This document shows, piece after piece, positions 4,914-45,691 of a stretch of DNA of 45,691 nt. The notes under the pieces are model-generated. The model saw only the letters and a list, made by a program, of their open reading frames with translations, had not been told where the DNA came from and made no database searches. Made by a program: the position numbers and the translations under genes. Positions within the stretch are counted from its first letter, which is position 1. Each line of letters opens with the position of its first letter. Source of the DNA: Acidimicrobiia bacterium (GTDB taxonomy: Bacteria > Actinomycetota > Acidimicrobiia > IMCC26256 > PALSA-555); contig JANOHN010000320.1 in assembly GCA_031406505.1 (NCBI GenBank), positions 1-45,691 of the forward strand, written 5' to 3'.

Positions 4914-5721
4914 GGAGAAGCACCGCGGCAAGCTGACGGCTCTGCGCCACGAGCGTGCCATCCTTCGACCACACCTCGCCGCTCTCCTCGATGTAGCCCT
5001 CGTTGGCTGCATCGGTGCGAAACACCGCCAGGAGGAACTCGTCGGCGGTCGCGGTCGGCAAGGGCAACGACACCCGGAAGTGAACCGTGAGGTCGATCGT
5101 CGGCACGATGATCTGCTCGCGCAATCGACTGAACACCGGCGGCACCCACGCGTCGGTGATCGCTGCCACCGCGCACGCATCGAGCACCTGCGGCTCCTCG
5201 AGTCGGATCCACCCACCCGCCACGGCCTCGCGCGCGGGCGGGGCGTCTTGCCACGGCTGTTCCCCGATCGCCCACCGCGTATCCCATCGGTGCGCGATCG
5301 CCGGTGCGTCGGCGTGAAGCGCGGCAGCCTCGATCCGATCGGCCGGCACTACCGCAGGCATCTCGAGGTCGCAGAACTCCGGGCCGGGTCGTGGCGTCGA
5401 GAACGCAGCCATCGCCAACGCCACCAAGCTGTCGCCCTGGTACAACCGCGCCGAGATCGACGTGAGCGAGCGGCCGACGCGCTCGATCGACGTCGTGACC
5501 CGCGCCGATCCGACCTCGGCCGGCGCCACGTAGTGCAACGTGAGCGAGCGGGGCGCGCGTGCCGCGTCGCCGACACGGTCGGTCATCGCGCGGAGCACGA
5601 ACGCCGCGACGTATCCGCCGTTCGGACCACGGTAGACGAGCCATCCCGGGTCGATCGTTGCGTCGTAGACGTCGTCGTCGACCCGGGTGACGGCCGTGTC
5701 GCGTTCGAACTTCGTCACCAT
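4903..5721 (-). CDS. Acyl-CoA thioesterase (TesB-like double hot-dog family)
   Basis: 272 aa. The N-terminus (FERDTAV...YDATIDPGWLVYRGPNGGYVAAFVLRAM) is typical of thioesterase-II-like proteins. The gene converges on ptrB with an 11-nt overlap. Confidence 0.72.
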   Translation of the reverse strand: MVTKFERDTAVTRVDDDVYDATIDPGWLVYRGPNGGYVAAFVLRAMTDRVGDAARAPRSLTLHYVAPAEVGSARVTTSIERVGRSLTSISARLYQGDSLVALAMAAFSTPRPGPEFCDLEMPAVVPADRIEAAALHADAPAIAHRWDTRWAIGEQPWQDAPPAREAVAGGWIRLEEPQVLDACAVAAITDAWVPPVFSRLREQIIVPTIDLTVHFRVSLPLPTATADEFLLAVFRTDAANEGYIEESGEVWSKDGTLVAQSRQLAAVLLLNP

Positions 5722-5729
5722 TGCGGGCG

Positions 5730-5735
5730 ACCGTA
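5730..5735 (-). promoter_or_regulatory. Putative -10 box (TACGGT) 8 nt upstream of the thioesterase ATG
   Basis: The reverse strand reads cgaTACGGTcgcccgcaATG. No SD is present, consistent with a leaderless or near-leaderless mRNA. Confidence 0.3.
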
Positions 5736-5749
5736 TCGTGCGCCGCCTC

Positions 5750-5755
5750 TACGCT
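5750..5755 (+). promoter_or_regulatory. Putative -10 box (TACGCT) 9 nt upstream of the alpha/beta-hydrolase ATG
   Basis: The sequence reads ctcTACGCTgctcactcaATG and lies inside a 43-nt divergent spacer. Confidence 0.3.
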
Positions 5756-5764
5756 GCTCACTCA

Positions 5765-6400
5765 ATGCCCGACATCGAGCCCATCACGCTCCAGTCGGAC
5801 GGCAACACGCTCGAAGCCGAGGTGGTCCGTGCGGTAGGTGCCCCCGACGTCGGCGTGGTGCTGTGCCATCCGCATCCGCAGTACGGCGGCACGATGCGCT
5901 CCATCGTGATCAGCGCGCTCTTCGCCGCACTCCCCGACCGAGGCGCGGCGGTATTGCGCTTCAACTTCCGCGGCGTCGAAGGAAGCACGGGCACCTATGA
6001 CGAAGGCCGCGGCGAGTGCGGCGATGCCGCGGTGGCACTCCACACGCTCGCGAGCATGGTGCCCGCGGGCACGCCGCTCGTACTGGTGGGCTGGTCGTTC
6101 GGCGGCGACGTCGCATTGTCGGTGCTCGATCCCGCAATCTCCGCGTGGGTTGGCATCGCGCCGCCACTGCGCTTCGTGGCCGACCTGAGTGCGTTGGCGG
6201 CGGATCCGCGCCCCAAGCTGCTCGTGCTCGCGGCTCACGACGAGGTCCGCGCACCGGACGAGGTCGCGGCCTCGGCCGCGACCTGGCTGGCCGTCGAGAT
6301 CGAGATCGTGCCCGGCGCGAGCCACTTCTTCGTCGGACGGACCGACCAGCTCACCGCTGTGGTTGGGCGGTTCGTGCGCATGGTGGCCGCCGGGACCTGA
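5765..6400 (+). CDS. Alpha/beta hydrolase (COG2945-like)
   Basis: The track ORF 5687..6400 was trimmed to the ATG at 5765 (MPDIEP) to avoid overlapping the divergent thioesterase start. Motifs are CHPHPQYGGTM and the nucleophile elbow LVGWSFGG. Confidence 0.75.
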   Translation: MPDIEPITLQSDGNTLEAEVVRAVGAPDVGVVLCHPHPQYGGTMRSIVISALFAALPDRGAAVLRFNFRGVEGSTGTYDEGRGECGDAAVALHTLASMVPAGTPLVLVGWSFGGDVALSVLDPAISAWVGIAPPLRFVADLSALAADPRPKLLVLAAHDEVRAPDEVAASAATWLAVEIEIVPGASHFFVGRTDQLTAVVGRFVRMVAAGT

Positions 6401-6420
6401 GCGTCCGACATGATGAAGTG

Positions 6421-8412
6421 ATGACCACGCCAACGCCGGCCTCGGCCGAGCATGGCCACGGATTCGGCTACAAGCCAGCACTCGACGGGCTGCGAGCGGT
6501 CGCAGTCGGCTCGGTCATGGCGTACCACTTCGGCGGATTCAGCGATGGCCCGCTGCCCGGCGGCTTCCTCGGCGTCGACACGTTCTTCGTGCTCTCGGGC
6601 TACCTCATCACGTCGTTGCTGCTCGGCGAGTGGGGTCGGAGCGGCACGCTGAAGCTCTCGGCGTTCTGGGCTCGGCGAGCGCGCCGCTTGTTCCCCGCGC
6701 TGCTGCTCGCGCTGACTGCCGTGGCCATCTGGGCTGCGTTCGCGGTCCCGTCCGACCGTCTCGGCACGATCCGCACCGACTCGTTGTGGACGCTCTTCTA
6801 CGGCGCCAACTGGCACTTCATCGAGTCGGGCCAGTCGTATTTCGGCCTCTTCAGCGAAGCATCGCCATTGCGCCACGCCTGGTCGTTGGCGATCGAGGAG
6901 CAGTTCTACGTGCTCTGGCCACTCATCACGTTCGGCTGCCTGCGGCTCGGACGGGGACGGCCGCGCGTGCTCGCTGGCTTCTGCGTCGCCGGGATCGCCG
7001 GCTCCGCATTCCTGCTCGGACACCTGTACGACGCGTCCGACCCCTCCCGCGCGTACTTCGGCACCGATTCGCGCGCGAGCCAGTTGCTCGTCGGTGCGCT
7101 CCTCGCCATCGTGCTGTCGCGATGGAGCCCGCGTAGCCGCGGCGCGCAGCGCGGCGTGCAGGTCGCTGGCGCGATCGGTGCCGGCGCGTGCATCTGGGCG
7201 TTCGCCACCGCCAACGACACCGAGGCCTGGCTCTACCGCGGCGGGTTCCTCGGCTTCGCGCTTGCAACGGCTGCGGTCATCGTCGCGATCGTGCAACCGA
7301 CGCGCACGCCTCTCACTGCCGTGCTGTCGCTGCGCCCGGTGCGTTGGATCGGTCAGGTGTCGTACGGCCTGTACCTCTGGCACTGGCCGGTGCAGATCGC
7401 GATCTCCGAGGGTCGAACGGGGATGAGCGGATGGACGCTCGCGCTGGTTCGTCTGGCTGTGACGTTCACGGCAACGACGATCTCGTACTACGTGATCGAG
7501 CGGCCCATCCGGTACGGCGCGATGAAGGGATGGACCGCCCGACTCGCGGCGCCTGCGGCAGCAGCGCTCGTCGCGGTGACGATCCTCGTCGCGACCGCAA
7601 GCGCAACCACACCGCCGAATTTCCTGTCGGCCGAACCCGGCGAGGTGGTGAAGGTGGGCCCGACGCCGACCTCGGTGGTCACGACCTCGACGTCCGTGCC
7701 CATCGGATCGACCGCGCCACTGCCCACGAACTTCTTGCTCGTGGGCGACTCTCTCGCGGGCTCGCTCGCCGACGCGCTGCTAGCGGAGGCGAGTGCGCGC
7801 GGGGTCACACTCTCGGCCGCGACGCGCCCCGGGTGCGGGATGACCACCGCCGTCCCGCTCAGTCGGAACACGGGCGAGGGCGTCCCGTGGGCGCCGGACT
7901 GCTCACGGCAGACGGCGGAGTACCAGCAGCAGGTGATCAGTCAGTACAACCCACAGGTCGTGCTCTGGCTGAGCAGCTGGGAGCCCACCGACCACCTGTA
8001 CGACGGGACTCGCCTTGACTTCGAGACGCCTGAAGGGGACGCGGCGCTGCTCGCCGACTTCGAGCAGTCACGTCAACGACTGACTTCGGCCGGCGCGACG
8101 CTCGTGTTCCTCACGCTGCCCGGACCGGCGGAGCGCTCCGATCTCGGCCCCGGCGACATGACGCTCAACCACGACTTCGGGCATTTGAACTCGCTGTTCC
8201 GCCAGTTCACGGCCGAGCACCCTGACACGGTCAAGGTCGTCGACCTGGCCAAGATCGTGTGTGCGGGCGGACCGCCGTGCCCGGAGGTCGTGGATGGCGT
8301 GCGGCTCCGACCGCGTGACGGCGGCCATTTCCATGACGATGGCCCAGCATGGGTTGCACCACGTCTCTTCGACGCGGTGCTCGCGGCGTTTGGTGCTGAA
8401 CCGACGCGCTAG
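6421..8412 (+). CDS. Acyltransferase-3 (OafA/YrhL-like) membrane O-acyltransferase with C-terminal SGNH domain
   Basis: The track ORF 6016..8412 was trimmed to the ATG at 6421. The N-terminus (KPALDGLRAVAVGSVMAYHF...GFLGVDTFFVLSGYLIT) matches the AT3 signature. It is followed by about 10 TM segments and a C-terminal LLVGDSLAGSL SGNH block. Confidence 0.85.
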   Translation: MTTPTPASAEHGHGFGYKPALDGLRAVAVGSVMAYHFGGFSDGPLPGGFLGVDTFFVLSGYLITSLLLGEWGRSGTLKLSAFWARRARRLFPALLLALTAVAIWAAFAVPSDRLGTIRTDSLWTLFYGANWHFIESGQSYFGLFSEASPLRHAWSLAIEEQFYVLWPLITFGCLRLGRGRPRVLAGFCVAGIAGSAFLLGHLYDASDPSRAYFGTDSRASQLLVGALLAIVLSRWSPRSRGAQRGVQVAGAIGAGACIWAFATANDTEAWLYRGGFLGFALATAAVIVAIVQPTRTPLTAVLSLRPVRWIGQVSYGLYLWHWPVQIAISEGRTGMSGWTLALVRLAVTFTATTISYYVIERPIRYGAMKGWTARLAAPAAAALVAVTILVATASATTPPNFLSAEPGEVVKVGPTPTSVVTTSTSVPIGSTAPLPTNFLLVGDSLAGSLADALLAEASARGVTLSAATRPGCGMTTAVPLSRNTGEGVPWAPDCSRQTAEYQQQVISQYNPQVVLWLSSWEPTDHLYDGTRLDFETPEGDAALLADFEQSRQRLTSAGATLVFLTLPGPAERSDLGPGDMTLNHDFGHLNSLFRQFTAEHPDTVKVVDLAKIVCAGGPPCPEVVDGVRLRPRDGGHFHDDGPAWVAPRLFDAVLAAFGAEPTR

Positions 8413-33853: not shown

Positions 33854-35779
33854 GTGACCACCACCGCCACGCCGACGCTCGCCACCCATCCGCTCGACAT
33901 GCTGACGGTCGACGAGGTCGCGCGCGCGGTCGCGATCCTGCGCGCGAGCGGGCGCGTGCCCGAAGGCGCGCGTTTCATCCACGTCGTGCTCCACGAACCG
34001 ACCAAAGACACCGTGGCCGCACATCGGCCCGGCGATCCCGTCGACCGCGAGGTCGAGCTCCAACTCGTGGCGGGACCGACACTCGAGGTGATCGAGGCAG
34101 TGGTGTCGATCACTGCGACCGAAGTGCGCGATGTGCAAGTGATCGACGGCGTATGCCCCGCGCTCATGTTTGGCGAGTCCTACGACGCGATCTGCAAGGT
34201 GAAGGAGCATCCCGAGTGGCAAGCGGCGATGCGCCGGCGCGGGATCACCGACTTCGACCTCGTGCAGGTGGACCCATGGCCTGCGGGCACGTTCGGCAGT
34301 CCGCATGAAGAAGGACGGCGCATCAGCCGCTGCATCTCGTTCCTGCGCGAGTCGAAGACCGACAACGGCTACGCGCGCCCCATCGAAGGCGTGATCGCCT
34401 TCTTCGACCAAGGCGGGGGCGAAGTGCTGGAGGTGGTGGACCTCGGCGTCGTACCGCTCCCGCCGAACCGCGGGTCGTACCTTCCCGAAGACGTCGGCCC
34501 GATGCGTACCGACCTCAAGCCGCTCGAGATCACCCAACCCGACGGGCCGAGCTTCACGGTCGAGGGCAACTTTGTGCGCTGGCAACGCTGGTCGTTCCGG
34601 GTCGGCTTCGACCCGTACGAAGGGCTTGTGCTCCACACGCTGGCCTACGACGACGCCGGGCGCATACGTCCGGTGATGCACCGCGCGTCGATCAGCGAGA
34701 TGGTCGTGCCCTACGGCGACCCGGGTCCGATGCACGGGTGGAAGAACGCGTTCGACGTAGGCGAGTGGGGTCTCGGGCGGATGGCGAACTCGCTCAAGCT
34801 CGGATGCGACTGCCTCGGCGTCATCCACTACTTCGACGGCGTGCTGGCAACCGAGGCTGGCGACCCGTACCTCGTGGAGCACGCCATCTGCATGCATGAA
34901 GAGGACTACGGCATCCTCTGGAAGCACCAAGACCTGCAAGGGGGCACGACTGAGGTGCGGCGTTCACGCCGGCTGGTCGTGAGCTCGATCTCGACCGTCG
35001 GCAACTACGAGTACGGCTTCTACTGGTACCTGTACCTCGACGGCAACGTGCAGCTCGAGGTGAAGCTCACCGGGATCATCTCGTCGATGGCGGTCGCACT
35101 GGGCGAGGTGCCTGCGTTTGCCAACCTCGTGGCACCGGGCCTCGCCGGTCCGAACCACCAGCACTTGTTCTGCGCGCGCCTCGACCTCGACATCGACGGC
35201 ACCGCGAACTCTGTGTACGAGGTGGAAGCCGAGCGCGTGCCGACCGGTCCCGACAACCCGTGGGCCAACGCGTTCCGCCAGCGCTCGACGCTGCTCGAGA
35301 CGGAACATGGCGCGCAACGCGAGACGAATTCGGCCGCGTCGCGCGGTTGGAAGATCGTCAATCCGTCGAGCACGAACTGTCTCGACCAATGCGTGAGCTA
35401 CAAGCTTGTCCCGACGATGTCGACTCCCACCTTGTTGGCGCATCCCGACTCGAGCATCGGGCGTCGTGCCGCGTTCGCCACGCACAACGTATGGGTCACG
35501 CCCTATGAGCGCGACGAGCGGCGTGCGGCCGGCAACTACCCGAACCAGTCAGCCGGTGGCGACGGCCTGCCCGCGTGGACCGCAGCCGATCGCTCGATCA
35601 CCGACACCGATGTGGTGCTCTGGTACACATTCGGCGTCACCCACTTCGTGCGACCCGAAGACTGGCCCGTCATGCCGGTCGAGTACACGGGCTTCTTGCT
35701 CCAACCGATCGGCTTCTTCGATCGGAACCCCGCTCTCGACGTGCCGCCGCAGAGCTCCAACGGCAGCTGTCACACCTGA
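33854..35779 (+). CDS. Copper-containing (topaquinone) primary-amine oxidase
   Basis: 641 aa. The TPQ precursor motif is STVGNYEYGFYWYLY, and the copper His ligands lie in HQHLFCARLDLDIDG and WYTFGVTHFVRPEDWPVMP. No signal peptide is present. Confidence 0.93.
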   Translation: MTTTATPTLATHPLDMLTVDEVARAVAILRASGRVPEGARFIHVVLHEPTKDTVAAHRPGDPVDREVELQLVAGPTLEVIEAVVSITATEVRDVQVIDGVCPALMFGESYDAICKVKEHPEWQAAMRRRGITDFDLVQVDPWPAGTFGSPHEEGRRISRCISFLRESKTDNGYARPIEGVIAFFDQGGGEVLEVVDLGVVPLPPNRGSYLPEDVGPMRTDLKPLEITQPDGPSFTVEGNFVRWQRWSFRVGFDPYEGLVLHTLAYDDAGRIRPVMHRASISEMVVPYGDPGPMHGWKNAFDVGEWGLGRMANSLKLGCDCLGVIHYFDGVLATEAGDPYLVEHAICMHEEDYGILWKHQDLQGGTTEVRRSRRLVVSSISTVGNYEYGFYWYLYLDGNVQLEVKLTGIISSMAVALGEVPAFANLVAPGLAGPNHQHLFCARLDLDIDGTANSVYEVEAERVPTGPDNPWANAFRQRSTLLETEHGAQRETNSAASRGWKIVNPSSTNCLDQCVSYKLVPTMSTPTLLAHPDSSIGRRAAFATHNVWVTPYERDERRAAGNYPNQSAGGDGLPAWTAADRSITDTDVVLWYTFGVTHFVRPEDWPVMPVEYTGFLLQPIGFFDRNPALDVPPQSSNGSCHT

Positions 35780-36469: not shown

Positions 36470-37408
36470 TCAGTCGGTATCGATGTGCGCCGGTGCGTCG
36501 CACGCATGGCACTCCAGCTCGAGCGTCGCGTGCTCGACGCCGAATCGTGCGGACAGCATCGTCTTGAGCGCCTCACCTTGTTGCTGGGCATCGTGCAGCG
36601 CGTACGCATCACACAACACAACGTGCGCCGACAGCGCGGTCAGACCGGCGCCCACCTCCCAGACGTGCAGGTGGTGCACTGCTTCCACATGGGGGTCTGC
36701 ACTCAACGCAGCTTCGAGATCATCCAAGTCGAGGTGACGCGGCACCCCTTCCAATACGACGTTCACCGTGTCGCGCAAGAGCCCCCATGCCGAATACACG
36801 ACGAGCATCCCGATCAGGATCGACACCACGGGGTCGAGCCAGTCGGCGTCGAACAGCAACACGCCCGCGCCAGCCGCCATGGCCCCTACCGACCCCGCCG
36901 CGTCGACTGCCATGTGCACGAACGCGCCCCGCATGTTGAGATCACGCCCCTGCGCGCGGCCCAGAATCACCGCGCTGACCACGTTGACCACAAGGCCAAC
37001 GAACGCCACGCCCAGCAAGCCACCACCCGCGACGTCGGCCGGCTCACCGATCCGCTTCGCCGCCTCGACGAAGATCCACACTGCAGCAGCCAGGATCAGC
37101 GCGCCGTTGACCAATCCACCGAGCGCTTCGGCCCGGCGCAGCCCGAATGTCCGGCGCGCCGACGCCGGACGCAGCATCAACGACTGGGCGACGAGCGCGA
37201 TCACCAACCCGGCGACGTCGGTCGACATATGTGCCGCATCCGCGAGCAACGCCAACGAATCGAACAGCAATCCGCCGACCACTTCGACGACCAAGAACCC
37301 AGCGTTCGCGATCAAGGCGATCCACAGGGCTCGCCGCGCTCGGCTCGTCCCCGCGGCGGCCGTGTGGTCGCGACCGACATGAGTCACGTCGCCCAGCTCG
37401 TGGGGCAC
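36470..37408 (-). CDS. Cation diffusion facilitator (CzcD/ZitB-like) divalent-metal efflux protein
   Basis: 312 aa with FLVVEVVGGLLFDSLALLADAAHMSTD (TM2 HxxxD site), HMAVDAAGSVG (TM5) and a C-terminal VHHLHVWE cytoplasmic domain. Confidence 0.9.
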   Translation of the reverse strand: MPHELGDVTHVGRDHTAAAGTSRARRALWIALIANAGFLVVEVVGGLLFDSLALLADAAHMSTDVAGLVIALVAQSLMLRPASARRTFGLRRAEALGGLVNGALILAAAVWIFVEAAKRIGEPADVAGGGLLGVAFVGLVVNVVSAVILGRAQGRDLNMRGAFVHMAVDAAGSVGAMAAGAGVLLFDADWLDPVVSILIGMLVVYSAWGLLRDTVNVVLEGVPRHLDLDDLEAALSADPHVEAVHHLHVWEVGAGLTALSAHVVLCDAYALHDAQQQGEALKTMLSARFGVEHATLELECHACDAPAHIDTD

Positions 37409-38023: not shown

Positions 38024-39109
38024 TCACTCTTCGGCGATCTTGGATTCATGGCTGTGGCGATGATGGACGTCGCTCACGTGAGCGTGCGCGTGAGCGAAGG
38101 GCTCGTGTTCGTGGAGATGCGAATGGGCTTGACCGGACGGCGTATCGGCGGGATGGACGTGCTGGTGGTGCTCGTCATGGGTGTGGAGGTGCTCATGTCC
38201 CAGCCGCTCGTGGACGTGCCGGTGTGCGTGGCGTTCGGTGGCCACAAGGACGATGCCAAGCGCCATCGCCAGTCCGGCACCGACCTCCAATACGCCGAGG
38301 TGCTCGGCAAGGATCACCACGGAGAGGATCGCACCGATGAAAGGCGCCGTGGCGAAGACAATCGATTCGCGCGCCGCGCCCAACAGGCGGAGCGCATACG
38401 CGTCGAGCACGATGCTGGCACCGTACGAGACGGCGCCAAGCGTCAGAGCTAGGAGCAGAACTCCCGAGATAGGAATGGTGTCGCCCAACGCGATTGCGAT
38501 GATGAGGTTGATGCTGGCAGCTGCTCCGGTCTTGACGGCGACGAGTCGGAACGGGTCACGGACGCTGAGCGATTGCGTGAGGTTGTTGTCGATTCCCCAA
38601 CCCACACACGCGAGTGCCACCAACACCACCCCCAGAACGTCGACTCCGCCACGACCCGAACCGACAGCGAGCAGAGCCGCGCCACTGAAGACCGTCACCG
38701 CGCCGAGTGCCGCGCGTCGCGAGAGGTGCTCACGGAATAGGGCAACCCCGATCACAAGGGTCGCGACCCCCTCGAGGTTGAGGAGTAGGGAGGCGGTCGT
38801 CCCTTGAATCCGCTCGAGGCCGAGCAAGAGCAACACTGGCGCGACGACCCCACCGCTCGCGATCAGGCAAACGAGACGCCCCGCGTCCTGACGCTGCAAT
38901 CGCGTCTCTCTTGTTCCGCGGCGCCCAACGACCGCCGTCCCGACCGCAGTGAACGCACCGAGGTAGAGCAGCCCCGCCAGCGCCTGAGGGCTGATGTCGG
39001 CAAGCAGCTCCTTCGAGAACGGTGTCGCAGCCCCGAACAACACCGCCGCCCCAAGCCCAGCCGCAATTCCAAGCCGTGCACTCGATCGACCCGATCGGTT
39101 CATGAGCAC
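38024..39109 (-). CDS. DMT-superfamily (EamA) transporter with His-rich C-terminal tail
   Basis: 361 aa. About 10 TM helices form two EamA halves (AAVLFGAATPFSK..., GAVSYGASIVLDAYALRLLGA). A 70-residue tail follows. An AAGGA SD lies 7 nt upstream. Confidence 0.85.
   Translation of the reverse strand: MLMNRSGRSSARLGIAAGLGAAVLFGAATPFSKELLADISPQALAGLLYLGAFTAVGTAVVGRRGTRETRLQRQDAGRLVCLIASGGVVAPVLLLLGLERIQGTTASLLLNLEGVATLVIGVALFREHLSRRAALGAVTVFSGAALLAVGSGRGGVDVLGVVLVALACVGWGIDNNLTQSLSVRDPFRLVAVKTGAAASINLIIAIALGDTIPISGVLLLALTLGAVSYGASIVLDAYALRLLGAARESIVFATAPFIGAILSVVILAEHLGVLEVGAGLAMALGIVLVATERHAHRHVHERLGHEHLHTHDEHHQHVHPADTPSGQAHSHLHEHEPFAHAHAHVSDVHHRHSHESKIAEE
38027..38236 (-). other. His-rich tail of the EamA transporter (23 His in 70 residues)
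   Basis: The sequence is ERHAHRHVHERLGHEHLHTHDEHHQHVHPADTPSGQAHSHLHEHEPFAHAHAHVSDVHHRHSHESKIAEE. It is in frame with the transporter and uninterrupted. Confidence 0.85.
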
Positions 39110-39220: not shown

Positions 39221-40501
39221 TCAGCGAGTCCAGAAGTCGGATTCTTCTCGTTCAGCGGCTTCCGGAGGCACGGGGTTGGCTTCGGCATCGCGAACGCGGC
39301 GGGCGCGCCGATGCAACCGAGCTCCTCGCACCCGCCCGGTGGGTTGAGACACGAACTCCGCTGCTAGCCACGTGGTGAGTGGTACGGCAGCGACCAGGCC
39401 GATGCTGCCCACGAGCGTGCGGATGATCTCGGTGCCCACGATCTCACTGTTGGCGACCGTGCCCAACGATTGTTGCGCGAGGACGAACAGGAGGAGGAGC
39501 GGTAACGCGGCTCCGGCGTAGGCCAGCGCGAGCGTGTTGACCGTCGACGCAACATGATCGCGGCCGATGCGCAACCCGGCCCGGTAGAGCTCCCAGCGTG
39601 ACATCGAGGGGTTTGCGAGGCGCAGCTCCCAGACTGCGGATGCTTGCGTGACCGTGACATCGTCAAGCGCGCCGAGCGCGCCGAGGACCATGCCGGCGAG
39701 CACGATGCCGCCGAGATCGAGGTTCTGTGTGCCGACAAGGACGAGGATCGCCTCTTCGCTCGTGAATCCAGTCAGTTCGGCGAGCTCCGTGAACAGTGTG
39801 GCCAGGCCGACGGTGAGCGCGAGCGCGGCGAGCGTGCCGAGGAGCGCGACGGTGGTCATCAAGCGCAACCCGTGTGCGAGGTACAGCGCCAGATACGCGA
39901 TGGCGGCCGAACCCACCACCGCTACGAGGACAGGGCTTCTCCCCTCGACCAGCGCTGGGAGCACGTAAACCAGGAGGACCACGAGGCTCGCACCGAGTCC
40001 GATCAGCGCGCTTGCGCCGCGCCATCGTCCGAGCGCGACGACAACCACAACGAAGAGGATCGTGAGCCAGAGCAACAATGGGCGCCGTTGCCGGTCGCTG
40101 TACTGATATTGAAACCCCGAGTCGGCCCTGGGGTCGTAGGAAAGCACGACCCCGTCACCCGCTTCGAGATCAGGAGACGTCGGTGAATCCGGCAGCTCGA
40201 TTCGCACGATCGCGCCTTGATCGGGGCCGGCGCTCAGGCGGAACCGGATTCGCGCGCATGGGACGTCGTCGGCGGCGGTCGTACCTTCACATGGGCGATC
40301 GATGCTCGACATGACGTCGGCTCCGTACACCTCGGTGATGAGTCCGAGCGCTTCATCGCTGCGCCGCACGTCTCCCTGCGGCCATGACACGACGAGGCCT
40401 ACCCCGGTAGCAAACGCGAGCAGCAGGATGACAGCGACGAGCACACGCCGACGCGACGGCGAGGCGCGGAGATCCTCGCCTGAGCCATGGTCGTGCGACA
40501 T
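39221..40501 (-). CDS. YibE/F-family membrane protein
   Basis: The track ORF 39221..40870 was trimmed to the ATG at 40501 (MSHDHGSGEDL). It has one N-terminal TM, an extracytoplasmic domain, and then a polytopic YibE/F-like core (LWLTILFVVVVVALGRWRG..., LVLVGTQNLDLGGIVLAGMVLGALGALDDVTVTQAS). Confidence 0.78.
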   Translation of the reverse strand: MSHDHGSGEDLRASPSRRRVLVAVILLLAFATGVGLVVSWPQGDVRRSDEALGLITEVYGADVMSSIDRPCEGTTAADDVPCARIRFRLSAGPDQGAIVRIELPDSPTSPDLEAGDGVVLSYDPRADSGFQYQYSDRQRRPLLLWLTILFVVVVVALGRWRGASALIGLGASLVVLLVYVLPALVEGRSPVLVAVVGSAAIAYLALYLAHGLRLMTTVALLGTLAALALTVGLATLFTELAELTGFTSEEAILVLVGTQNLDLGGIVLAGMVLGALGALDDVTVTQASAVWELRLANPSMSRWELYRAGLRIGRDHVASTVNTLALAYAGAALPLLLLFVLAQQSLGTVANSEIVGTEIIRTLVGSIGLVAAVPLTTWLAAEFVSQPTGRVRGARLHRRARRVRDAEANPVPPEAAEREESDFWTR

Positions 40502-40546
40502 CCACTGGAGTGTGGTCCCGAGGACACGTCCGACCGCGGCAATCCA

Positions 40547-40564
40547 TTGGCAGTGCGTTGGCAG
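40547..40564 (+). repeat. Direct repeat TTGGCAG-TGCG-TTGGCAG (11-nt phasing) in the divergent control region
   Basis: Read directly from the sequence. A third TGGCAGC copy lies at 40631-40637. The repeat is 46-63 nt upstream of the YibE/F ATG. Confidence 0.3.
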
Positions 40565-40751
40565 ATGACGACTCGGATCAACTACCAGTCGTAGTGGGTT
40601 AGGGTGTTCTTGCTCCGCTGCTCTGGTCCCTGGCAGCACCTCCAACTCCTGGAAGGCGCGCATGGGACATGACCGGGGCCGCGCGACCACTTCGTTCGAC
40701 GCTGATCGCCAGGTGCGCGTCTCAGCAGGCTGCGCTCGCCCCTCGTCGAAC

Positions 40752-40765
40752 GACGTGATCACGTC
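40752..40765. promoter_or_regulatory. Perfect 14-bp palindrome GACGTGATCACGTC (candidate operator)
   Basis: The sequence is self-complementary by inspection. It lies 117 nt upstream of the SHOCT ATG, inside the 380-bp gene-free spacer. Confidence 0.25.
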
Positions 40766-40881
40766 ATCGCGGGTGATGGCAGCGACGTGCTCCAACCCCT
40801 TTCGAACCGCGGATCGCTCGTGGTTGGCATGGGGTAGGTCGTCGGCTCGAGTGAGCAGACAGCGATGCAAGGGAGATCGAC

Positions 40882-41106
40882 ATGTGGGACTGGACCGGGA
40901 ACATGGGGGGCTGGTGGTGGCTCATGGCCCCGTTGATGGTGGCGTTCTGGGTATTGGTGATCTGGGGCGCCGTCGCATTCGCGCGCCGCGACCGGACCAC
41001 CGAAAGCGGCTCGCCGGATGCCGAGACGCTTCTCGCCGAGCGGCTCGGACGCGGCGAGATCGACGAGGCGGAATACCGCCGGCAGCGCGCGCTCATTCGG
41101 TCATGA
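40882..41106 (+). CDS. SHOCT-domain small membrane protein
   Basis: 74 aa with a Trp-rich TM (GGWWWLMAPLMVAFWVLVIWGAVAF) followed by LLAERLGRGEIDEAEYRRQRALI, the SHOCT signature. An AAGGGAG SD is present. Confidence 0.8.
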   Translation: MWDWTGNMGGWWWLMAPLMVAFWVLVIWGAVAFARRDRTTESGSPDAETLLAERLGRGEIDEAEYRRQRALIRS

Positions 41107-41747
41107 ACGATGTGGCAGCTCCTACGAAGGTCCGGGTCGTTGAAGTATTCGCCGACGTGTCGTGCCCCTTCACCCACGTCGGCCTTCAGCGTTTGGTCAC
41201 ACAGCGCAACCGGCTCGGCCGCGACGACGTCGTCCTGTGGGTCCGGGCCTGGCCGCTTGAGCTCGTCAACGGCGCACCTCTCGCCGGTGACTTCGTCGCC
41301 GAAGAGATCGGCGTCCTTCGGGACGGTGTGGCGCCGGACCTCTTCAAGGAATTCGATGCGGCGCACTTCCCGGACACAACGGTCCCAGCCCTCGCGTTGA
41401 CAGCCTTGGCCTATCGGCGAGGGGACCTCACCGGCGAAGCGGTCAGCCTCGCTCTGCGCATCGCCCTCTTTGAGGAAGGGCGCGACATTGCGGATTCTGT
41501 CGAGCTCGCCGCAATCGCCCACTCGTATGGCTTGGACCCAGTCAGCACCGATGCCGAACGTTCAGTCCACAACGATTGGCACGAGGGTGAACGGCGCGGC
41601 GTAGTCGGCTCTCCGTACTTCTTCGTCGACGACCATGGGTTCTTCTGCCCGACCTTGAACGTCACGCACGTCGAAGGCGAACTCCATGTCGACGCTGACC
41701 TCCACGCCTTCAACGAGTTCGTCGCCACCGTCTTTGGCCGCGGCTGA
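41103..41747 (+). CDS. DsbA-family thioredoxin-fold protein with monothiol CPFT site
   Basis: The track ORF 40662..41747 was trimmed to the ATG at 41103, which overlaps the SHOCT stop (ATGA). The sequence VRVVEVFADVSCPFTHVG occupies the position of the usual CPxC, and GVVGSPYFFV lies near the C-terminus. Confidence 0.78.
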   Translation: MNDVAAPTKVRVVEVFADVSCPFTHVGLQRLVTQRNRLGRDDVVLWVRAWPLELVNGAPLAGDFVAEEIGVLRDGVAPDLFKEFDAAHFPDTTVPALALTALAYRRGDLTGEAVSLALRIALFEEGRDIADSVELAAIAHSYGLDPVSTDAERSVHNDWHEGERRGVVGSPYFFVDDHGFFCPTLNVTHVEGELHVDADLHAFNEFVATVFGRG

Positions 41748-41820
41748 GCCCAACGTTCGACCATCTGGAAAGTCGAACCGTCTGGTTCGGGTTCAAAGTG
41801 CCAACAAGAAGAGGAGACCG

Positions 41821-42204
41821 ATGAAACGGGGATGGGGAGCAGCGGTGTGTGTGATCGTCCTGGCCGGAGCAGGGTTCGGCCTGGCAACTGCAGTCGGCAA
41901 CGACGACGGCCACGGGTCGAATGACGATCACGGGCTGCGCGACGACCGCATGGCGGTGTTGATGGCCGACGGATCGATGCCGACTCAGATGCGCGGGTTC
42001 ACCGAGATGATGAACGAGCTACGCGATCAGATGACGCCGGAGATGCGAACGCTCATGGATGACGATGCGATGTGGCAGCTCATGGAGAGCGGCGACCTCG
42101 AAGAGATGATGGATGAGCACGGGCAGCGCATGAGCGACATGCCCGGCATGGGCGGAGGCGGCGGCCACGGCGGCGCCGATCACGGGAGCGGTCCGAATGG
42201 CTGA
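41821..42204 (+). CDS. Secreted or anchored Met/His/Asp-rich protein (17 Met in 127 aa)
   Basis: The track ORF 41686..42204 was trimmed to the ATG at 41821, which has a GAGGAG SD. The signal/TM segment is MKRGWGAAVCVIVLAGAGFGLATAVG. It is followed by repeated M-x(2-4)-M clusters and a GMGGGGGHGGADHGSG tail. Confidence 0.65.
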   Translation: MKRGWGAAVCVIVLAGAGFGLATAVGNDDGHGSNDDHGLRDDRMAVLMADGSMPTQMRGFTEMMNELRDQMTPEMRTLMDDDAMWQLMESGDLEEMMDEHGQRMSDMPGMGGGGGHGGADHGSGPNG

Positions 42205-42249
42205 CCCGGCTACTGCCGATCAGAGCAATCTCGACCGAGGAGTATGACC

Positions 42250-42453
42250 ATGTCTTTGCGACAAGCACTCACGTACCACCTACTCGTCCCCGGCGCGATC
42301 TTCGCGGTCCTGCTTGTCGTTGGAGTACCGCTCGGCACTGCGTTCTTCGTCGGCATGATGGCCGGCTGCATGAGCATGATGGTCATGATGATGGGCGGCG
42401 GCCAAGGGAACCGCAGCGACCGCGACAACGAGCCAACGTCGGGGACACGGTGA
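42250..42453 (+). CDS. Tiny membrane protein with a Met/Cys cluster (DUF2933-like)
   Basis: The track ORF starts at 42244, but the GAGGAG SD is correctly spaced (7 nt) for the ATG at 42250. It has one or two TM segments followed by GMMAGCMSMMVMMMGGG. Confidence 0.55.
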   Translation: MSLRQALTYHLLVPGAIFAVLLVVGVPLGTAFFVGMMAGCMSMMVMMMGGGQGNRSDRDNEPTSGTR

Positions 42454-42473
42454 CGAACCGATCGTCGACCTGA

Positions 42474-43577
42474 GTGGTGCATCGGCGCGTCCCACTCGCA
42501 CGGCGGAACCTGCTCGCTGATCATCGTCGCCTGACTGCTGGCATCGCCGGCGTTGGGATAGCCCTGATGCTCGTGCTTGTTCTCGACGGGCTCTGGGAAG
42601 GCGTGCGCACGCGCGCGAGCATCTATCCCGACGAAGTCGGTGCCGACCTGTTCGTCGCCCAACGCGGCGTGGCCAACTTTCTCGGCGAGACGAGCTCGCT
42701 CTCGCGCAGCGTCGTCAGTGAAGTGCGCGCGACACCTGGGGTGCGCTTTGCCGACCCGGTCCGGGGCCAGTTCGTCGTGTTCGAGTTGCACGGCAAGAAG
42801 ATCGCGTCGTACGTCGTTGGCTACGTCCCGGGTCGTCACGGCGGACCGTGGACGCTCGACGCGGGCCGCCGACCGCGCGCGGATGACGAGGTCGTCATCG
42901 ACCGGGCGTTGGCACGCCGACACGGCCTCGAGCCCGGCGAAGTCGTGGAGATCGTCGGGACTCGGTTTCGGGTCGTGGGGCTGGCCGATGCCTCCGCGGT
43001 CATGACCGGCTTCGTCTTCGTCACCCACTCCGCCGCTGACACGCTCTTCCGCACACCGGGCACCACGAGCTACGTGCTCGTCGGAGCCTCGAACGCGCCG
43101 GCCGTCCAGGACCGGCTCGAGAACCACGGGTTGACGGTCTTCTCCCGGGATCAGCTCGCGGCGAATGACCGCAAGCTCTATACCGGGATCTTCGGTTCGG
43201 CGTTGAAGCTCATGGTTGGTGTGGCATTCATCGCGGGGTCCTTGGTGGTGGCATTGACGGTGTATGCGTCCGTGGCCGACCGCCGACGCGAGTTCGGGAT
43301 CGTCAAGGCGATGGGCGCAACCGGGCGAACCATTGCCGCCATCGTGGTCCGCCAGGCGCTGGCCCTCACCGCGTTGGGCCTCATAGTCGGCATGGCCCTC
43401 TACCTCGCGGTCCGCGCGTTGCTCGCGCAGATCCGCCCCGAATTCACCGTGGTACTGACGAACGCTGGGTTGTTGCGCGCGATCGGTGCGGCGATCGTCA
43501 TGGCCCTCGTGGCGGCCGTTGTACCGGCTCGGCGAGTCGCGGCGGCGGAGCCCGCAGCCGTCTACCGGGAGGTGTGA
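42474..43577 (+). CDS. FtsX/MacB-type ABC transporter permease 1
   Basis: 367 aa with an N-terminal PLARRNLLADHRR and TM1, an extracytoplasmic domain of about 200 aa, and a C-terminal three-TM FtsX module (REFGIVKAMGATGRTI). Confidence 0.88.
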   Translation: MVHRRVPLARRNLLADHRRLTAGIAGVGIALMLVLVLDGLWEGVRTRASIYPDEVGADLFVAQRGVANFLGETSSLSRSVVSEVRATPGVRFADPVRGQFVVFELHGKKIASYVVGYVPGRHGGPWTLDAGRRPRADDEVVIDRALARRHGLEPGEVVEIVGTRFRVVGLADASAVMTGFVFVTHSAADTLFRTPGTTSYVLVGASNAPAVQDRLENHGLTVFSRDQLAANDRKLYTGIFGSALKLMVGVAFIAGSLVVALTVYASVADRRREFGIVKAMGATGRTIAAIVVRQALALTALGLIVGMALYLAVRALLAQIRPEFTVVLTNAGLLRAIGAAIVMALVAAVVPARRVAAAEPAAVYREV

Positions 43578-43578
43578 G

Positions 43579-44688
43579 GTGACGCGTTCGGTGCCGCTGG
43601 CGCGTCGCAACCTGTTCCAGGATCCCCGGCGCGCGGCACTCGCGGTTGCCGGTGTTGCGGTGTCACTCGTGCTCGTGCTGGTGCTGGATGGCGTGTTCGC
43701 CGGCGCGGTGCGTCAGGTGACCGCGTATCTGCGCAACGTCCCAGCCGATCTCATTGTCTCGCAGCAAGGCGTGCGCACGATGCACATGTCGGCCTCCGCG
43801 CTGCCCGACGGCTCGATCGAACGAGTCCGTGGGATATCGGGGGTCGCGTGGGTCGAAGGGATCCGTTTCACGACGGCGACGGTGCGCGCCGGCGCCGGCC
43901 GCCAACTCAGCTACGTGATCGGCTACGACACCGACACAGGGCGAGGTGGGCCCTCGTCCGTGGCTAACGGAGCGTCGCCCGGACCGGGTCAAGCAGTCAT
44001 CGACGAGGTCGCAGCCGATGAGCTCGGCATCGGCGTCGGCGACAAGATCAGAGTGCTCGGTAGACCCTTCACGGTGAGCGGGCTGTCGGAGGGCGGCACG
44101 AGCATCACCAACACGACGACCTTCATCCGCAACGCGGACTTTGCCGAGGTTCGAGGTCCGTCGTTGAGCTATCTGCTTCTTGGTACCGAACCGGGCGTAA
44201 AGGTGACCGGCGTCGCTCGCCGGCTGGAGCGGGAGATCTCGGATGTCACGGTGCAATCCAAGGAGGAGTTCGTGGAGCAAGAGGGCCTCATCATGAAGGA
44301 CATGAGCGCGGACATCATGCAGATCATGTCGATCATCGCCTTCGCGATCGCGCTCGCCGTCGTCGCGCTCACGCTGTTCACCGCGACGCTCTCCAAGCTG
44401 CGGGAGTACGCAGTGGTCAAGGCACTCGGTGCACCGTCATCGCGACTCGCCCGGACCCTGCTCGTGCAAGCGACATGGTCGGTGATGCTCGCGCTGATCT
44501 TGGCTGTCGCGCTGAGCTTCGCTGCCGCGGCGCTCGTCGCCGCGATCACTCCAAACGTGCTGCTGCGCATCGAGACCGTGGCCATAGCGCGCGTCGCGGT
44601 CGCGGCACTCGTGGTCGGTACGCTCGGGGCACTCGTTCCTTTGCGGCGCATCGTTCGCCTCGATCCGGCGTCTGCGTTCCAAACATGA
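43579..44688 (+). CDS. FtsX/MacB-type ABC transporter permease 2 (paralog of permease 1)
   Basis: The track ORF 43486..44688 was trimmed to the GTG at 43579, 1 nt after the permease-1 stop. It has the same architecture (PLARRNLFQDPRR ... REYAVVKALGAPSSRL). Confidence 0.88.
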   Translation: MTRSVPLARRNLFQDPRRAALAVAGVAVSLVLVLVLDGVFAGAVRQVTAYLRNVPADLIVSQQGVRTMHMSASALPDGSIERVRGISGVAWVEGIRFTTATVRAGAGRQLSYVIGYDTDTGRGGPSSVANGASPGPGQAVIDEVAADELGIGVGDKIRVLGRPFTVSGLSEGGTSITNTTTFIRNADFAEVRGPSLSYLLLGTEPGVKVTGVARRLEREISDVTVQSKEEFVEQEGLIMKDMSADIMQIMSIIAFAIALAVVALTLFTATLSKLREYAVVKALGAPSSRLARTLLVQATWSVMLALILAVALSFAAAALVAAITPNVLLRIETVAIARVAVAALVVGTLGALVPLRRIVRLDPASAFQT

Positions 44689-45533
44689 CACCCACACCTC
44701 CCGCCCTCATTGCGCGAAATCTGACCAAGATCTACGGCGAAGGCGACCTCCTCGTGACCGCGGTGCACGACGTCGATCTCGAAGTCGCCCGCGGCGAGGT
44801 CGTGCTGATCATGGGGCCGTCCGGGAGCGGCAAGACGACTCTGCTGTCGATGCTTGGTGGCATGTTGCGCCCGACCAGCGGCACCGTCGTCGTCGACGAC
44901 GTCGACCTGACAACCACCCGCGAACGCGACCTCCCTCGACTGCGCGTTCACAAGCTCGGATTCGTGTTCCAGGACTTCAACCTTCTCTCCGCACTCTCCG
45001 CGCTCGAGAACGTCGAGCTCGCCCTCAATCTCGCCAACGTCACCGGTGCAGACGCGACACGACGGGCCCGAGATCTCCTGGAGCGTTTCGGCCTCGGCGA
45101 ACGCCTCGACTTCGTGCCCGGCAATCTCTCAGGGGGCGAGAAGCAACGCGTCGCGATCGCCCGCTCCCTCGCCAACGACCCCGCGGTGGTACTCGCTGAC
45201 GAGCCAACCGCCAACCTCGACTCGAAGATCGGCCACGAGATCGCGCAGCTCCTTCGTCAGCTCGCGATCGAAGAGCAGCGCAGCATCGTGCTCGTCAGTC
45301 ACGACCCGCGCCTCAAGGAGGTGGCGGACCGCGTCCTGTGGCTCGAAGACGGCACCTTCAAAGACCTTGCGCGTATGACTACCGACCCGGTGTGCGGCAT
45401 GGCCGTTGCCCAACAGGACGGCCCACATTTCCAGTTCGACGGAACAACCTGGTGGTTCTGTGCGTCGTCGTGTCGTGACGAGTTCGCCGATGATGCCCAG
45501 CGGTTCGCCGAACGAGCTCGAGCCACTGCCTGA
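44685..45533 (+). CDS. ABC transporter ATP-binding protein (MacB/LolD-like) fused to a C-terminal YHS domain
   Basis: The track ORF 44475..45533 was trimmed to the ATG at 44685, which overlaps the permease-2 stop (ATGA). Motifs are Walker A GPSGSGKTT, Q-loop FVFQDFNLL, signature LSGGEKQRVAIAR, Walker B VVLADEPT and H-loop VSHD. The YHS sequence then continues in the same frame. Confidence 0.9.
   Translation: MTPTPPALIARNLTKIYGEGDLLVTAVHDVDLEVARGEVVLIMGPSGSGKTTLLSMLGGMLRPTSGTVVVDDVDLTTTRERDLPRLRVHKLGFVFQDFNLLSALSALENVELALNLANVTGADATRRARDLLERFGLGERLDFVPGNLSGGEKQRVAIARSLANDPAVVLADEPTANLDSKIGHEIAQLLRQLAIEEQRSIVLVSHDPRLKEVADRVLWLEDGTFKDLARMTTDPVCGMAVAQQDGPHFQFDGTTWWFCASSCRDEFADDAQRFAERARATA
45375..45530 (+). 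other. YHS/TRASH-type metal-binding domain (in frame with the ABC ATPase; begins at an internal ATG)
   Basis: MTTDPVCGMAVAQQDGPHFQFDGTTWWFCASSCRDEFADDAQRFAERARATA matches the DPVCGM...(Y/W)(Y/F)FCSxxCxxxF pattern of YHS domains. Confidence 0.8.
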
Positions 45534-45691
45534 TGCGAGCCAGCCACTCCGCGACCGCGGTGCTCGAGGTGAAGGGCCTGCACTGGGCATCTGAGAAGGC
45601 GGTTGTCGAGAGCACCCTCGGACGCCTCGTCGGCGTCAGGAGCGTCGAGGCGAACCCCGTAGCGCAGACGGCCACGGTCTCATACGACCCG
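45533..45691 (+). CDS. N-terminus of a heavy-metal P-type (P1B) ATPase: HMA-like domain lacking CxxC; runs off the window
   Basis: The ATG overlaps the ATPase TGA (TGATG). The sequence is MRASHSATAVLEVKGLHWASEKAVVESTLGRLVGVRSVEANPVAQTATVSYDP. It follows the ferredoxin-like HMA pattern (V.GM.C..C...VE..L....GV..V.VN......V.YD), but GLHWAS replaces GMxCxxC. Confidence 0.7.
   Translation, partial: MRASHSATAVLEVKGLHWASEKAVVESTLGRLVGVRSVEANPVAQTATVSYDP

Follow-up and report, generated by a model that had tools for sequence, protein, structure and literature searches.

A three-gene cassette near the end of a 45,691-nucleotide stretch of DNA from an Acidimicrobiia bacterium (GenBank assembly GCA_031406505.1, contig JANOHN010000320.1, positions 1 to 45,691 of the forward strand; this whole stretch is called the window) encodes two paralogous FtsX/MacB-type permeases and an ATP-binding cassette (ABC) ATPase with a YHS/TRASH metal-binding domain at its C-terminus. 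Judged by sequence comparison, this ATPase-YHS cassette represents a conserved, uncharacterised clade in the copper-resistance gene clusters of Actinomycetota and Chloroflexota. By analogy with better known proteins, and with middling confidence, we infer that the cassette may be a copper-gated ABC extruder of type VII, in which copper would be the ligand of the tail, the activator of the ATPase and, either free or with a ligand or small protein, the substrate.

The cassette genes are all read from the forward strand, and their starts were chosen to fit the lengths of homologs (366-368 amino acids for the permeases and 282 for the ATPase) instead of the longest open reading frames (ORFs). Permease 1 (42474..43577, 367 amino acids) starts with GTG at 42474 and stops with TGA at 43575-43577; after a gap of one base (43578), permease 2 (43579..44688, 369 amino acids) starts with GTG at 43579, which has GGGAGG 7 nt upstream, and stops with TGA at 44686-44688. 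The ATG of the ATPase gene (44685..45533, 282 amino acids) at 44685 overlaps this stop as ATGA, and its own TGA (45531-45533) overlaps, as TGATG, the ATG at 45533 of the following gene, which encodes the N-terminus of a predicted P1B-type ATPase (45533..45691, 53 amino acids, cut by the window end). The one-base gap and both overlaps had been given in an earlier note on this DNA, and re-reading of the sequence confirmed them along with the coordinates in that note. Promoter, terminator and Rfam scans of 40.5-45.7 kb returned nothing above chance.

The ATPase polypeptide consists of a nucleotide-binding domain (44685..45362, residues 1-226) and a linker with the YHS/TRASH domain (45363..45533, residues 227-282), after which the gene stops. 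Its frame runs without a stop through VLWLEDGTFKDLARMTTDPVCGMAV and the end of the ABC core, VLWLEDGTFKDLAR, into MTTDPVCGMAV...WWFCASSCRDEF. According to Pfam, ABC_tran covers residues 28-176 (E-value 2e-34) and YHS (PF04945) covers residues 233-277 (31.6 bits against a cut-off of 30.3, E-value 1.6e-7), the latter being a significant match where the earlier note had predicted one beside ABC_tran (about residues 230-280). A scan of species-representative genomes (one genome per species) confirmed 309 relatives, and all locus counts refer to the best 80 of these 309, which are assigned in their genome records to Chloroflexota (57), Actinomycetota (22) and Gemmatimonadota (1). The motif W-x-x-D/E-G ... 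D-P-x-C-x-M ... C-x3-C is present in 79 of the 80 species loci; the continuation of the ABC frame into a YHS domain, first noticed in the window, is thus kept in the family, and the spacer from WLEDG to DPVCGM is exactly 10 residues long in 78 of the 79 full-motif loci. Among the matches listed, the 120 ATPase homologs (65-93% identity) are all about 280 amino acids long, and 116 of the 120 carry both PF04945 and PF00005 in precomputed annotations.

In an alignment of 56 ATPase homologs the junction between core and tail is free of gaps. Walker A, Q96, LSGGE, D172/E173 and H206 are invariant in the core, as are D234, P235, V236, C237, M239, V241, G253, F258, C259 and C263 in the tail, where D234, C237, C259 and C263 form the YHS ligand set D-x2-C ... 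C-x3-C. Between the window and locus L081, from a 93%-identical relative, the tail shows 18 synonymous and four non-synonymous codon differences, with 19 of the 23 base changes at third positions; the pattern in the ATPase core is alike (49 synonymous versus 16 non-synonymous). Taken together, the sequence comparisons show that the fusion of ABC ATPase and YHS domain is genuine, old and under selection. The free YHS protein which the earlier note had thought possible from the internal ATG at 45375 found no support, as neither a Shine-Dalgarno-like sequence nor a nearby stop lies ahead of this codon; Met is common at this position (residue 231), but some relatives have Leu or another residue.

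Searching a representative library with the 87-residue junction gave 232 clusters at E-values of at most 1e-10, many of them gene fragments or multi-YHS proteins, and yielded no clean family size. The library also holds proteins with 3-6 tandem YHS-like stretches, some of about 1000 amino acids (P0126, P0142, P0173, P0193, P0201 and others), as well as P0400, where the first 98 residues of a methionine-rich protein encoded upstream of the cassette are joined to the last 77 of the ATPase-YHS protein on a 2-kb contig, either as a deletion variant or as an assembly chimera. A permease search for a sister clade without the tail listed close family members only, and a match on a Deinococcus plasmid, considered as such a sister, proved to be an unrelated single-permease system.

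Both permeases score above the gathering scores of MacB_PCD and FtsX (27 and 25.5 bits, respectively), permease 1 with 43.9 and 52 bits and permease 2 with 55.8 and 36.8 bits. They are 31% identical over their full length (E-value 1e-29), and the earlier description of two paralogous FtsX-type permeases holds. In each, a single membrane segment at the N-terminus is followed by an outer domain of some 190-200 residues and then by a C-terminal membrane cluster, with four membrane helices in total. In permease 1 the hydrophobic segments lie at 22-40, 235-253, 287-305 and 332-350, with the large extracytoplasmic MacB-type domain between the first and the second; the C-terminal cluster of permease 2 shows four hydrophobicity peaks. 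The AlphaFold2 (AF2) model of permease 2 (predicted local distance difference test, pLDDT, 84; predicted template modelling score, pTM, 0.75) resolves helices 228-271, 287-323 and 333-359 in this cluster, and its long helices 16-47 and 228-271 flank a beta-rich domain (58-227). The best fold match of this model is HrtB (template modelling, TM, score 0.71-0.75), followed by LolE/LolC, MacB, Spr0695 and YbbP. In the outer domain of permease 2 there is a near-invariant MHM motif, of which H69 and M70 are conserved in 98% and 97% of 58 species and are both invariant in alignment A2, while H106, W126 and H150 are conserved in the outer domain of permease 1.

The AF2 monomer model of the ATPase has a mean pLDDT of 92 and a pTM of 0.78, with pLDDT values of 77-95 in the tail. 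By sequence and by predicted fold, the nearest structures of its core are MJ0796, MacB, YbbA, LolD and Spr0694, with target-normalised TM scores of about 0.9 for MacB, YbbA, MJ0796 and LolD, and MetN is also among the structure matches. Every ATPase match among the solved structures searched stops at about residue 225 and none carries a YHS tail; when the isolated tail was compared with solved structures, ribosomal protein L24e was the sole match, and a weak one (E-value 0.09).

No curated NCBIfam family, the MacB model included, scored above its cut-off. The permeases reach 19.6 and 18.3 bits for lolCE (cut-off 362) and 47.4 and 32.7 bits for DevC (cut-off 290), and the ATPase reaches 218.6 bits for LolD (cut-off 307.75) and 227.3 bits for DevA (cut-off 295.8). 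There is no gene for a MacA/HlyD-type or DevB adaptor in the window cluster, and an adaptor-like ORF stands beside the cassette in one of the 80 loci (L019, upstream). Membership in MacAB-TolC was rejected, the ATPase being a separate gene and the window cluster having no adaptor; LolCDE was rejected on the LolC/E and LolD scores far below the cut-offs, and DevCBA on the DevA/DevC scores and the missing adaptor gene. The likeness to HrtBA is in fold only, as the cassette has two paralogous permeases and copper-gene neighbours. On its sequence matches and modelled folds, the cassette is classed as a type VII (MacB/FtsX) ABC system outside every named subfamily.

The order permease 1, permease 2 and ATPase-YHS is kept in essentially every sufficiently long locus, and of the synteny that the earlier note proposed as a check, the permease-permease-ATPase part is conserved. 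A P1B ATPase lies within 8 kb of the cassette in 24 of 36 long-flank loci, and in 27 of 38 loci of at least 15 kb; the chance expectation would presumably be a few percent, which is a general-knowledge estimate from typical P1B copy numbers and genome sizes and not a computed value. On the same strand, the pump precedes the cassette in 17 loci; it follows the cassette, on either strand, in 17, and precedes it on the opposite strand in four. In relatives of 85-93% identity it is located upstream of the cassette. Of the pairing with a P1B pump proposed in the earlier note, the presence of a nearby pump therefore stands for about 70% of the well-flanked loci, while the start/stop coupling is local to the window, since the position and strand of the pump gene vary among relatives. 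At least one copper-type neighbour is found in 31 of the 38 long loci.

Over the best 80 loci, the recurrent neighbours include cupredoxin-like proteins (two groups, in 21 and 10 loci), CsoR (10 loci), small HMA proteins resembling CopZ (6 loci) and BlaI/CopY regulators (6 loci). Further ORFs containing a YHS domain occur in 17 loci, and free YHS proteins and YHS adenylyl cyclases are among these neighbours. SHOCT proteins (14 loci), Lgt (13 loci), a protein resembling S-adenosylmethionine-dependent methyltransferases (22 loci), OmpR-type response regulators (22 loci) and histidine kinases (14 loci) also recur.

We propose the following mechanism for the copper-gated extruder. The membrane part would be built from the two paralogous permeases and powered by two copies of the ATPase, each with a cytoplasmic YHS domain attached by a short linker of fixed length. 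With rising copper in the cytoplasm, Cu(I) would bind to the YHS tails and alter the closure of the two nucleotide-binding domains, by which ATP hydrolysis would be switched on. The long stalk helices would then transmit the ATPase cycle as mechanical movement to the outer domains, in the way of type VII systems generally. With their conserved His and Met residues, the outer domains would drive copper, either as such or in a copper-loaded ligand or small protein, off the outer membrane face, the site where the neighbouring P1B pump would deliver copper. In oxidising compartments, Cu(I) is typically bound by His and Met; H69 and M70 of permease 2 and H106 and H150 of permease 1 are the candidate ligands in the outer domains.

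The tail probably senses cytoplasmic copper, a role favoured because the spacer is fixed, the tail is kept in loci without a nearby pump, and a copper-controlled cyclase with a C-terminal YHS domain from Mycobacterium phlei offers a precedent. An ABC ATPase works by closing its dimer and the 10-residue spacer is invariant, so the YHS domain would be well placed to control this closure. Four points weigh against the copper-gated extruder. About one in five long loci has no copper-type neighbour within 8 kb. The Lgt, methyltransferase and two-component neighbours could point to a role in the envelope or with lipoproteins. The C-terminal regulatory domains of MetN, ModC and MalK inhibit rather than activate, and the tail may therefore control the ATPase in either direction. 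Moreover, zinc in a structural role, as found in ribosomal protein L24e, might occupy the D/C/C/C site (PMC4626032).

This last point leads to a rival explanation that we consider unlikely, in which the tail is a structural zinc ribbon for dimerisation or docking, and the transporter acts on a component of the envelope instead of metal ions, for instance by extracting lipoproteins, cuproproteins or damaged lipoprotein precursors in the manner of LolCDE, and is only co-regulated with copper genes. TRASH domains can indeed hold a structural metal, L24e being an example (PMC4626032), LolCDE likewise combines two paralogous permeases with one ATPase, and LolE/LolC rank high among the fold matches. 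A lipoprotein-like family of 151 amino acids also occurs in 17 loci, Lgt is near the cassette in the loci counted above, and a metal island on a Rhodococcus plasmid carries lgt twice together with lnt. However, the scores for the LolCE and LolD models stay well short of the cut-offs, HrtB, which extrudes small molecules, is the best match in fold, and the conserved His and Met residues of the outer domains are consistent with contact to metal. The carriers are mostly Actinomycetota and Chloroflexota, the majority of which are usually considered to have no classical outer membrane. The same kind of tail acts as a copper switch in a protein with a related layout of domains (PMC4626032).

Less probable still is a role of the tail as a chaperone-like copper donor or acceptor, which would pass Cu(I) on to the P1B pump or receive it from a cytoplasmic chaperone, with no regulation of the ATPase, so that ABC system and pump would form one physical relay. 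YHS/TRASH domains are known both from free proteins and from the N-termini of copper ATPases, where they bind metal (PMC4626032; PMC5552934), the genes of ATPase-YHS and pump are translationally coupled in the window, a pump accompanies most well-flanked cassettes, and the pump of the window clade, whose HMA-like domain lacks CxxC, might need an outside donor. The invariant spacer, however, is more in keeping with an allosteric module than with a donor that moves, and the tail is kept in loci without a pump within 8 kb. In addition, the partner pumps are of three subtypes with differing N-termini, and their genes stand in varying order and on either strand relative to the cassette.

We regard it as quite improbable that the system serves the acquisition of copper or another metal, or the supply of a cofactor (for instance for copper amine oxidase or cupredoxins), with the tail shutting it off by trans-inhibition when metal is sufficient. 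Such inhibition of import is exerted by the C-terminal ligand-binding domains of MetN and ModC, a copper amine oxidase gene is present 7 kb upstream in the window, and cupredoxins are frequent neighbours. The neighbours, however, are mainly efflux pumps and de-repressible regulators of copper stress (CsoR, CopY/BlaI), the cassette encodes no substrate-binding protein, and no type VII system is established as moving its substrate inwards. A parallel for a supply role is FtsX-type FetBCD of Campylobacter jejuni, which stands beside the YHS-bearing FetA and supports iron-limited growth (PMC10783030). Finally, the alternative raised in the earlier note, that a recent stop-codon loss joined separate ABC and YHS genes, or else a sequencing or assembly error did so, has a negligible probability: assembly or deletion artefacts do occur in this gene set, as the P0400 chimera illustrates, but the alternative is refuted because the fusion is found with the same spacer in independent assemblies of 79 species from three phyla, as well as on a finished Rhodococcus plasmid, while its junction aligns without gaps and the substitutions in its tail are mainly synonymous.

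The copper-gated extruder would act together with a predicted P1B pump, of which the window contains the first 53 residues. This fragment gives an HMA match (E-value 1.9e-9) and is 56% identical to the N-terminus of an 805-amino-acid HMA/E1-E2 ATPase in L081, which agrees with the P-type ATPase N-terminus recognised earlier; the window ends before the pump core. In L081, the complete pump (5017-7434) has TCPDALGLATP, GYN, MSGSS and DKTGT. The P1B pumps next to the cassette are mostly of the Cu type, with CPC together with YN and MxxSS in the majority, and five are CPH pumps with a His-rich N-terminus. In the window clade, the pumps have TCPDALGLATP (CPD) in transmembrane helix 4, GYN, MSGSS and an HMA-like N-terminus without CxxC (GLHWASEKA in the window), after which the CPD-type pumps show a C-x3-C...P-x-HL motif and then a Met/His-rich stretch. 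The pumps assigned to this unusual subtype are those of the window (from its N-terminal fragment, 45533-45691), L081 (5017-7434), L085 (3224-5848), L018, L020, L033, L043 and L062; the sole earlier mention of a CPD variant comes from a survey of Rhizobiales sequences (PMC5552934).

Two small proteins are encoded directly ahead of the permeases. The first (41821..42204, forward strand, 127 amino acids) is rich in Met, Asp and His; its ATG at 41821 is preceded by GAGGAG at 41811-41816, and it contains one N-terminal hydrophobic segment, 18 Met residues and the motifs GHGSNDDHGL and MMADGSMP. It matches no Pfam or NCBIfam family, and its homologs (121-127 amino acids) form only 22 database clusters, all unnamed or hypothetical. 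In close relatives this Met-rich protein always accompanies the cassette or a CPD-type pump, and it stands beside the cassette in L081-L086. It probably serves as an accessory protein that binds copper outside the cytoplasm while anchored in the membrane. The second (42244..42453, forward strand, 69 amino acids), the ORF directly upstream of permease 1, is a membrane protein with one hydrophobic segment and a Met-rich end, MMAGCMSMMVMMMGGG. It likewise has no match in Pfam or NCBIfam, is 72% identical to a 67-amino-acid protein at the same position in L081 and is also present in L084-L086. Both proteins are candidate partners or substrates in the window clade; since they are restricted to close relatives, they are not essential to the wider family. 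In other species, different small membrane proteins with Met/His-rich ends precede permease 1 (L011, L051).

When window positions 41686-45691 were compared with L081 and L084-L086 (85-93% identity), six genes were found in three orders, which indicates recent rearrangement of a conserved set. The order in the window is Met-rich protein, small membrane protein, permeases, ATPase-YHS and pump; in L081 it is Met-rich protein, pump, small membrane protein, permeases and ATPase-YHS; in L084-L086 it is pump, cyclase-YHS (on the other strand), Met-rich protein, small membrane protein, permeases and ATPase-YHS. The class III cyclases with a C-terminal YHS domain lie near both cassette and P1B pump in these three loci (L084:1314-1970, L085:5942-6598, L086:6298-6954), and further cyclase-YHS neighbours were observed at L003:1358-2101, L043:11879-12502 and L075:4592-5239. 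They are homologous to the copper-activated adenylyl cyclase of M. phlei and have its domain architecture. By analogy, these neighbours hint at cyclic AMP signalling in the same copper response.

Two other families were also observed around the cassette. The lipoprotein-like family of about 150 amino acids mentioned above, with conserved HxVDL and GGHHxEG motifs and no Pfam match, is near the cassette in 17 of the 80 loci (for example L027:6525-7043, L015:5324-5752, L051:4896-5411 and L071:4588-5037), and may represent a metal-binding protein not described so far. The position immediately before permease 1 is often taken by a membrane protein with a conserved CCAHH motif (12 loci, such as L048:5136-5648, L015:4683-5339 and L059:5014-5667); its sole Pfam match, Cation_efflux, is below the curated cut-off.

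Most of the window is unremarkable chromosome, which includes genes for the biosynthesis of histidine and tryptophan; its metal-related part extends from about 33.8 kb to the end. This part begins with the copper amine oxidase (33854-35779, 7 kb upstream of the cassette). Three genes on the minus strand follow, for a CDF cation efflux protein (36470-37408), for an EamA transporter whose C-terminus forms a long His-rich tail (38024-39109) and for a YibE/F protein (39221-40870), and the part ends in SHOCT-like and DsbA-like genes and the cassette. The SHOCT-like small membrane protein (40882..41106, forward strand) matches SHOCT with an E-value of 7e-5 (22.9 bits, below the 27-bit cut-off), and the DsbA-like thioredoxin-fold protein (41103..41747, forward strand) matches DSBA with an E-value of 3e-10. 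Their genes are joined by an ATGA overlap (41103-41106), and the same pair with the same overlap is located upstream of the cassette in L081 (2266-3128) and L082.

A cultured carrier is Rhodococcus sp. WAY2, whose plasmid pRWAY03 (NZ_CP046575.1, L087:9694-12855) has a copy of the cassette in a metal island; an Intrasporangium isolate is another cultured carrier. The Rhodococcus island also contains lgt twice, lnt, TlpA, CcdA, ResB/CcsB, DUF305, BlaI/CopY with an M56 peptidase, ArsR, a CsoR-type regulator and a P-type ATPase, and its ATPase-YHS gene is annotated solely as 'ATP-binding cassette domain-containing protein'. This copy shows 47% identity, a linker of 14 residues and a permease with FFHSIS replacing MHM; it has one intact upstream permease ORF, and a space of about 1 kb at the place of permease 1 holds no long ORF.

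Literature searches retrieved no paper that deals with a fusion of ABC ATPase and YHS domain or with an FtsX-type transporter of the cassette's kind linked to copper, in line with the remark in the earlier note that no characterised ABC-YHS fusion came to mind; in a paper on the copper stimulon of Corynebacterium glutamicum the sole ftsX mentioned is the cell-division ftsX. The ABC-YHS combination is already visible in precomputed annotations, and no curated family, solved structure or paper was found for it. Added regulatory domains are a familiar theme, and type VII systems (MacB, LolCDE, FtsEX, HrtBA, BceAB, YbbAP) have been studied as machines which transmit force across the membrane. The cassette might be the first ligand-gated machine of this type, in which Cu(I) on the paired YHS tails would license ATP hydrolysis and the outer His/Met domains would clear the copper delivered by the P1B pump; we put this forward tentatively and consider it rather doubtful. 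If true, the copper-binding tail would be a simple example of a type VII machine switched on from the cytoplasm. Bacteria without an outer membrane of the Gram-negative type export copper by P1B pumps, and the fate of this copper at the outer face is poorly understood. The copper-gated extruder would be the counterpart in Actinomycetota and Chloroflexota of the Gram-negative Cus system, which clears copper from the periplasm, with a different type of transporter and with post-translational control by the metal. A functional assignment would also improve the annotation of genomes from soil, sediment and wastewater and of metal-resistance islands, as databases name the family a generic ABC protein.

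Among known type VII systems, HrtBA of Corynebacterium diphtheriae (PDB 7w78 and 7w7a), which clears haem, a toxic compound that contains metal, from the outer membrane face, gives the best fold match of permease 2; it is of similar size, has a separate ATPase and resembles the cassette in that 79 of the 80 loci are without a MacA/HlyD-type adaptor. However, HrtB is a homodimer of one permease whereas the cassette encodes two paralogs, the identity is about 20%, HrtA has no C-terminal domain (its matches end at about residue 225), and the neighbours of the cassette are copper genes instead of haem sensors. LolCDE is similar in having two paralogous four-helix permeases and two copies of the ATPase, here a LolD-like one by its NCBIfam score, but LolD lacks the YHS tail and no LolA/LolB partners were seen near the cassette. 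The likeness to MacAB-TolC consists in the MacB_PCD and FtsX domains, in the ATPase, which is closest to the nucleotide-binding domain of MacB (target-normalised TM score 0.92, 40% identity), and in a presumed mechanotransmission. Unlike the cassette, with its separate ATPase gene and permease heterodimer, MacB is a single fused polypeptide that works with the MacA adaptor and TolC.

For the ATPase-YHS protein itself, MetN, ModC and MalK are comparable in bearing an extra ligand-binding domain after the nucleotide-binding domain, and these domains control the closure of the ATPase dimer from the cytoplasmic side. They differ in belonging to type I importers, in having larger and unrelated regulatory folds and in exerting inhibitory control; to our knowledge, no MetN-like regulatory domain has been described on a type VII system, and among the solved type VII structures searched, no ATPase bears a ligand-binding domain. 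The class IIIc adenylyl cyclase of M. phlei has a dimeric catalytic domain, a linker of 8 residues (8-11 in the published account) and a C-terminal YHS domain, and is activated by micromolar copper solely when this domain is present, with one Asp and three Cys residues proposed as the copper ligands (PMC4626032). The ATPase-YHS protein shares with it a dimerising catalytic domain, a short linker (the 10-residue spacer) and a D/C/C/C YHS site, but the output domain is a cyclase rather than an ABC ATPase, and the control of an ABC ATPase by a YHS domain remains an analogy.

Two further systems were compared by description only. FetBCD, encoded in FetMP-FetABCDEF of C. jejuni, consists of two permease genes and an ATPase gene beside the membrane YHS protein FetA, and differs from the cassette in that the YHS domain is on this separate membrane protein, is predicted to be periplasmic and belongs to iron acquisition (PMC10783030). 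PA4064/PA4065 of Pseudomonas aeruginosa, part of PA4063-PA4066, is a split MacB-type exporter under Zur, which differs in having one permease and appears to export a metallophore (PMC11481552). Like the cassette, Fet and PA4063-PA4066 are FtsX/MacB-type ABC systems tied to metal homeostasis.

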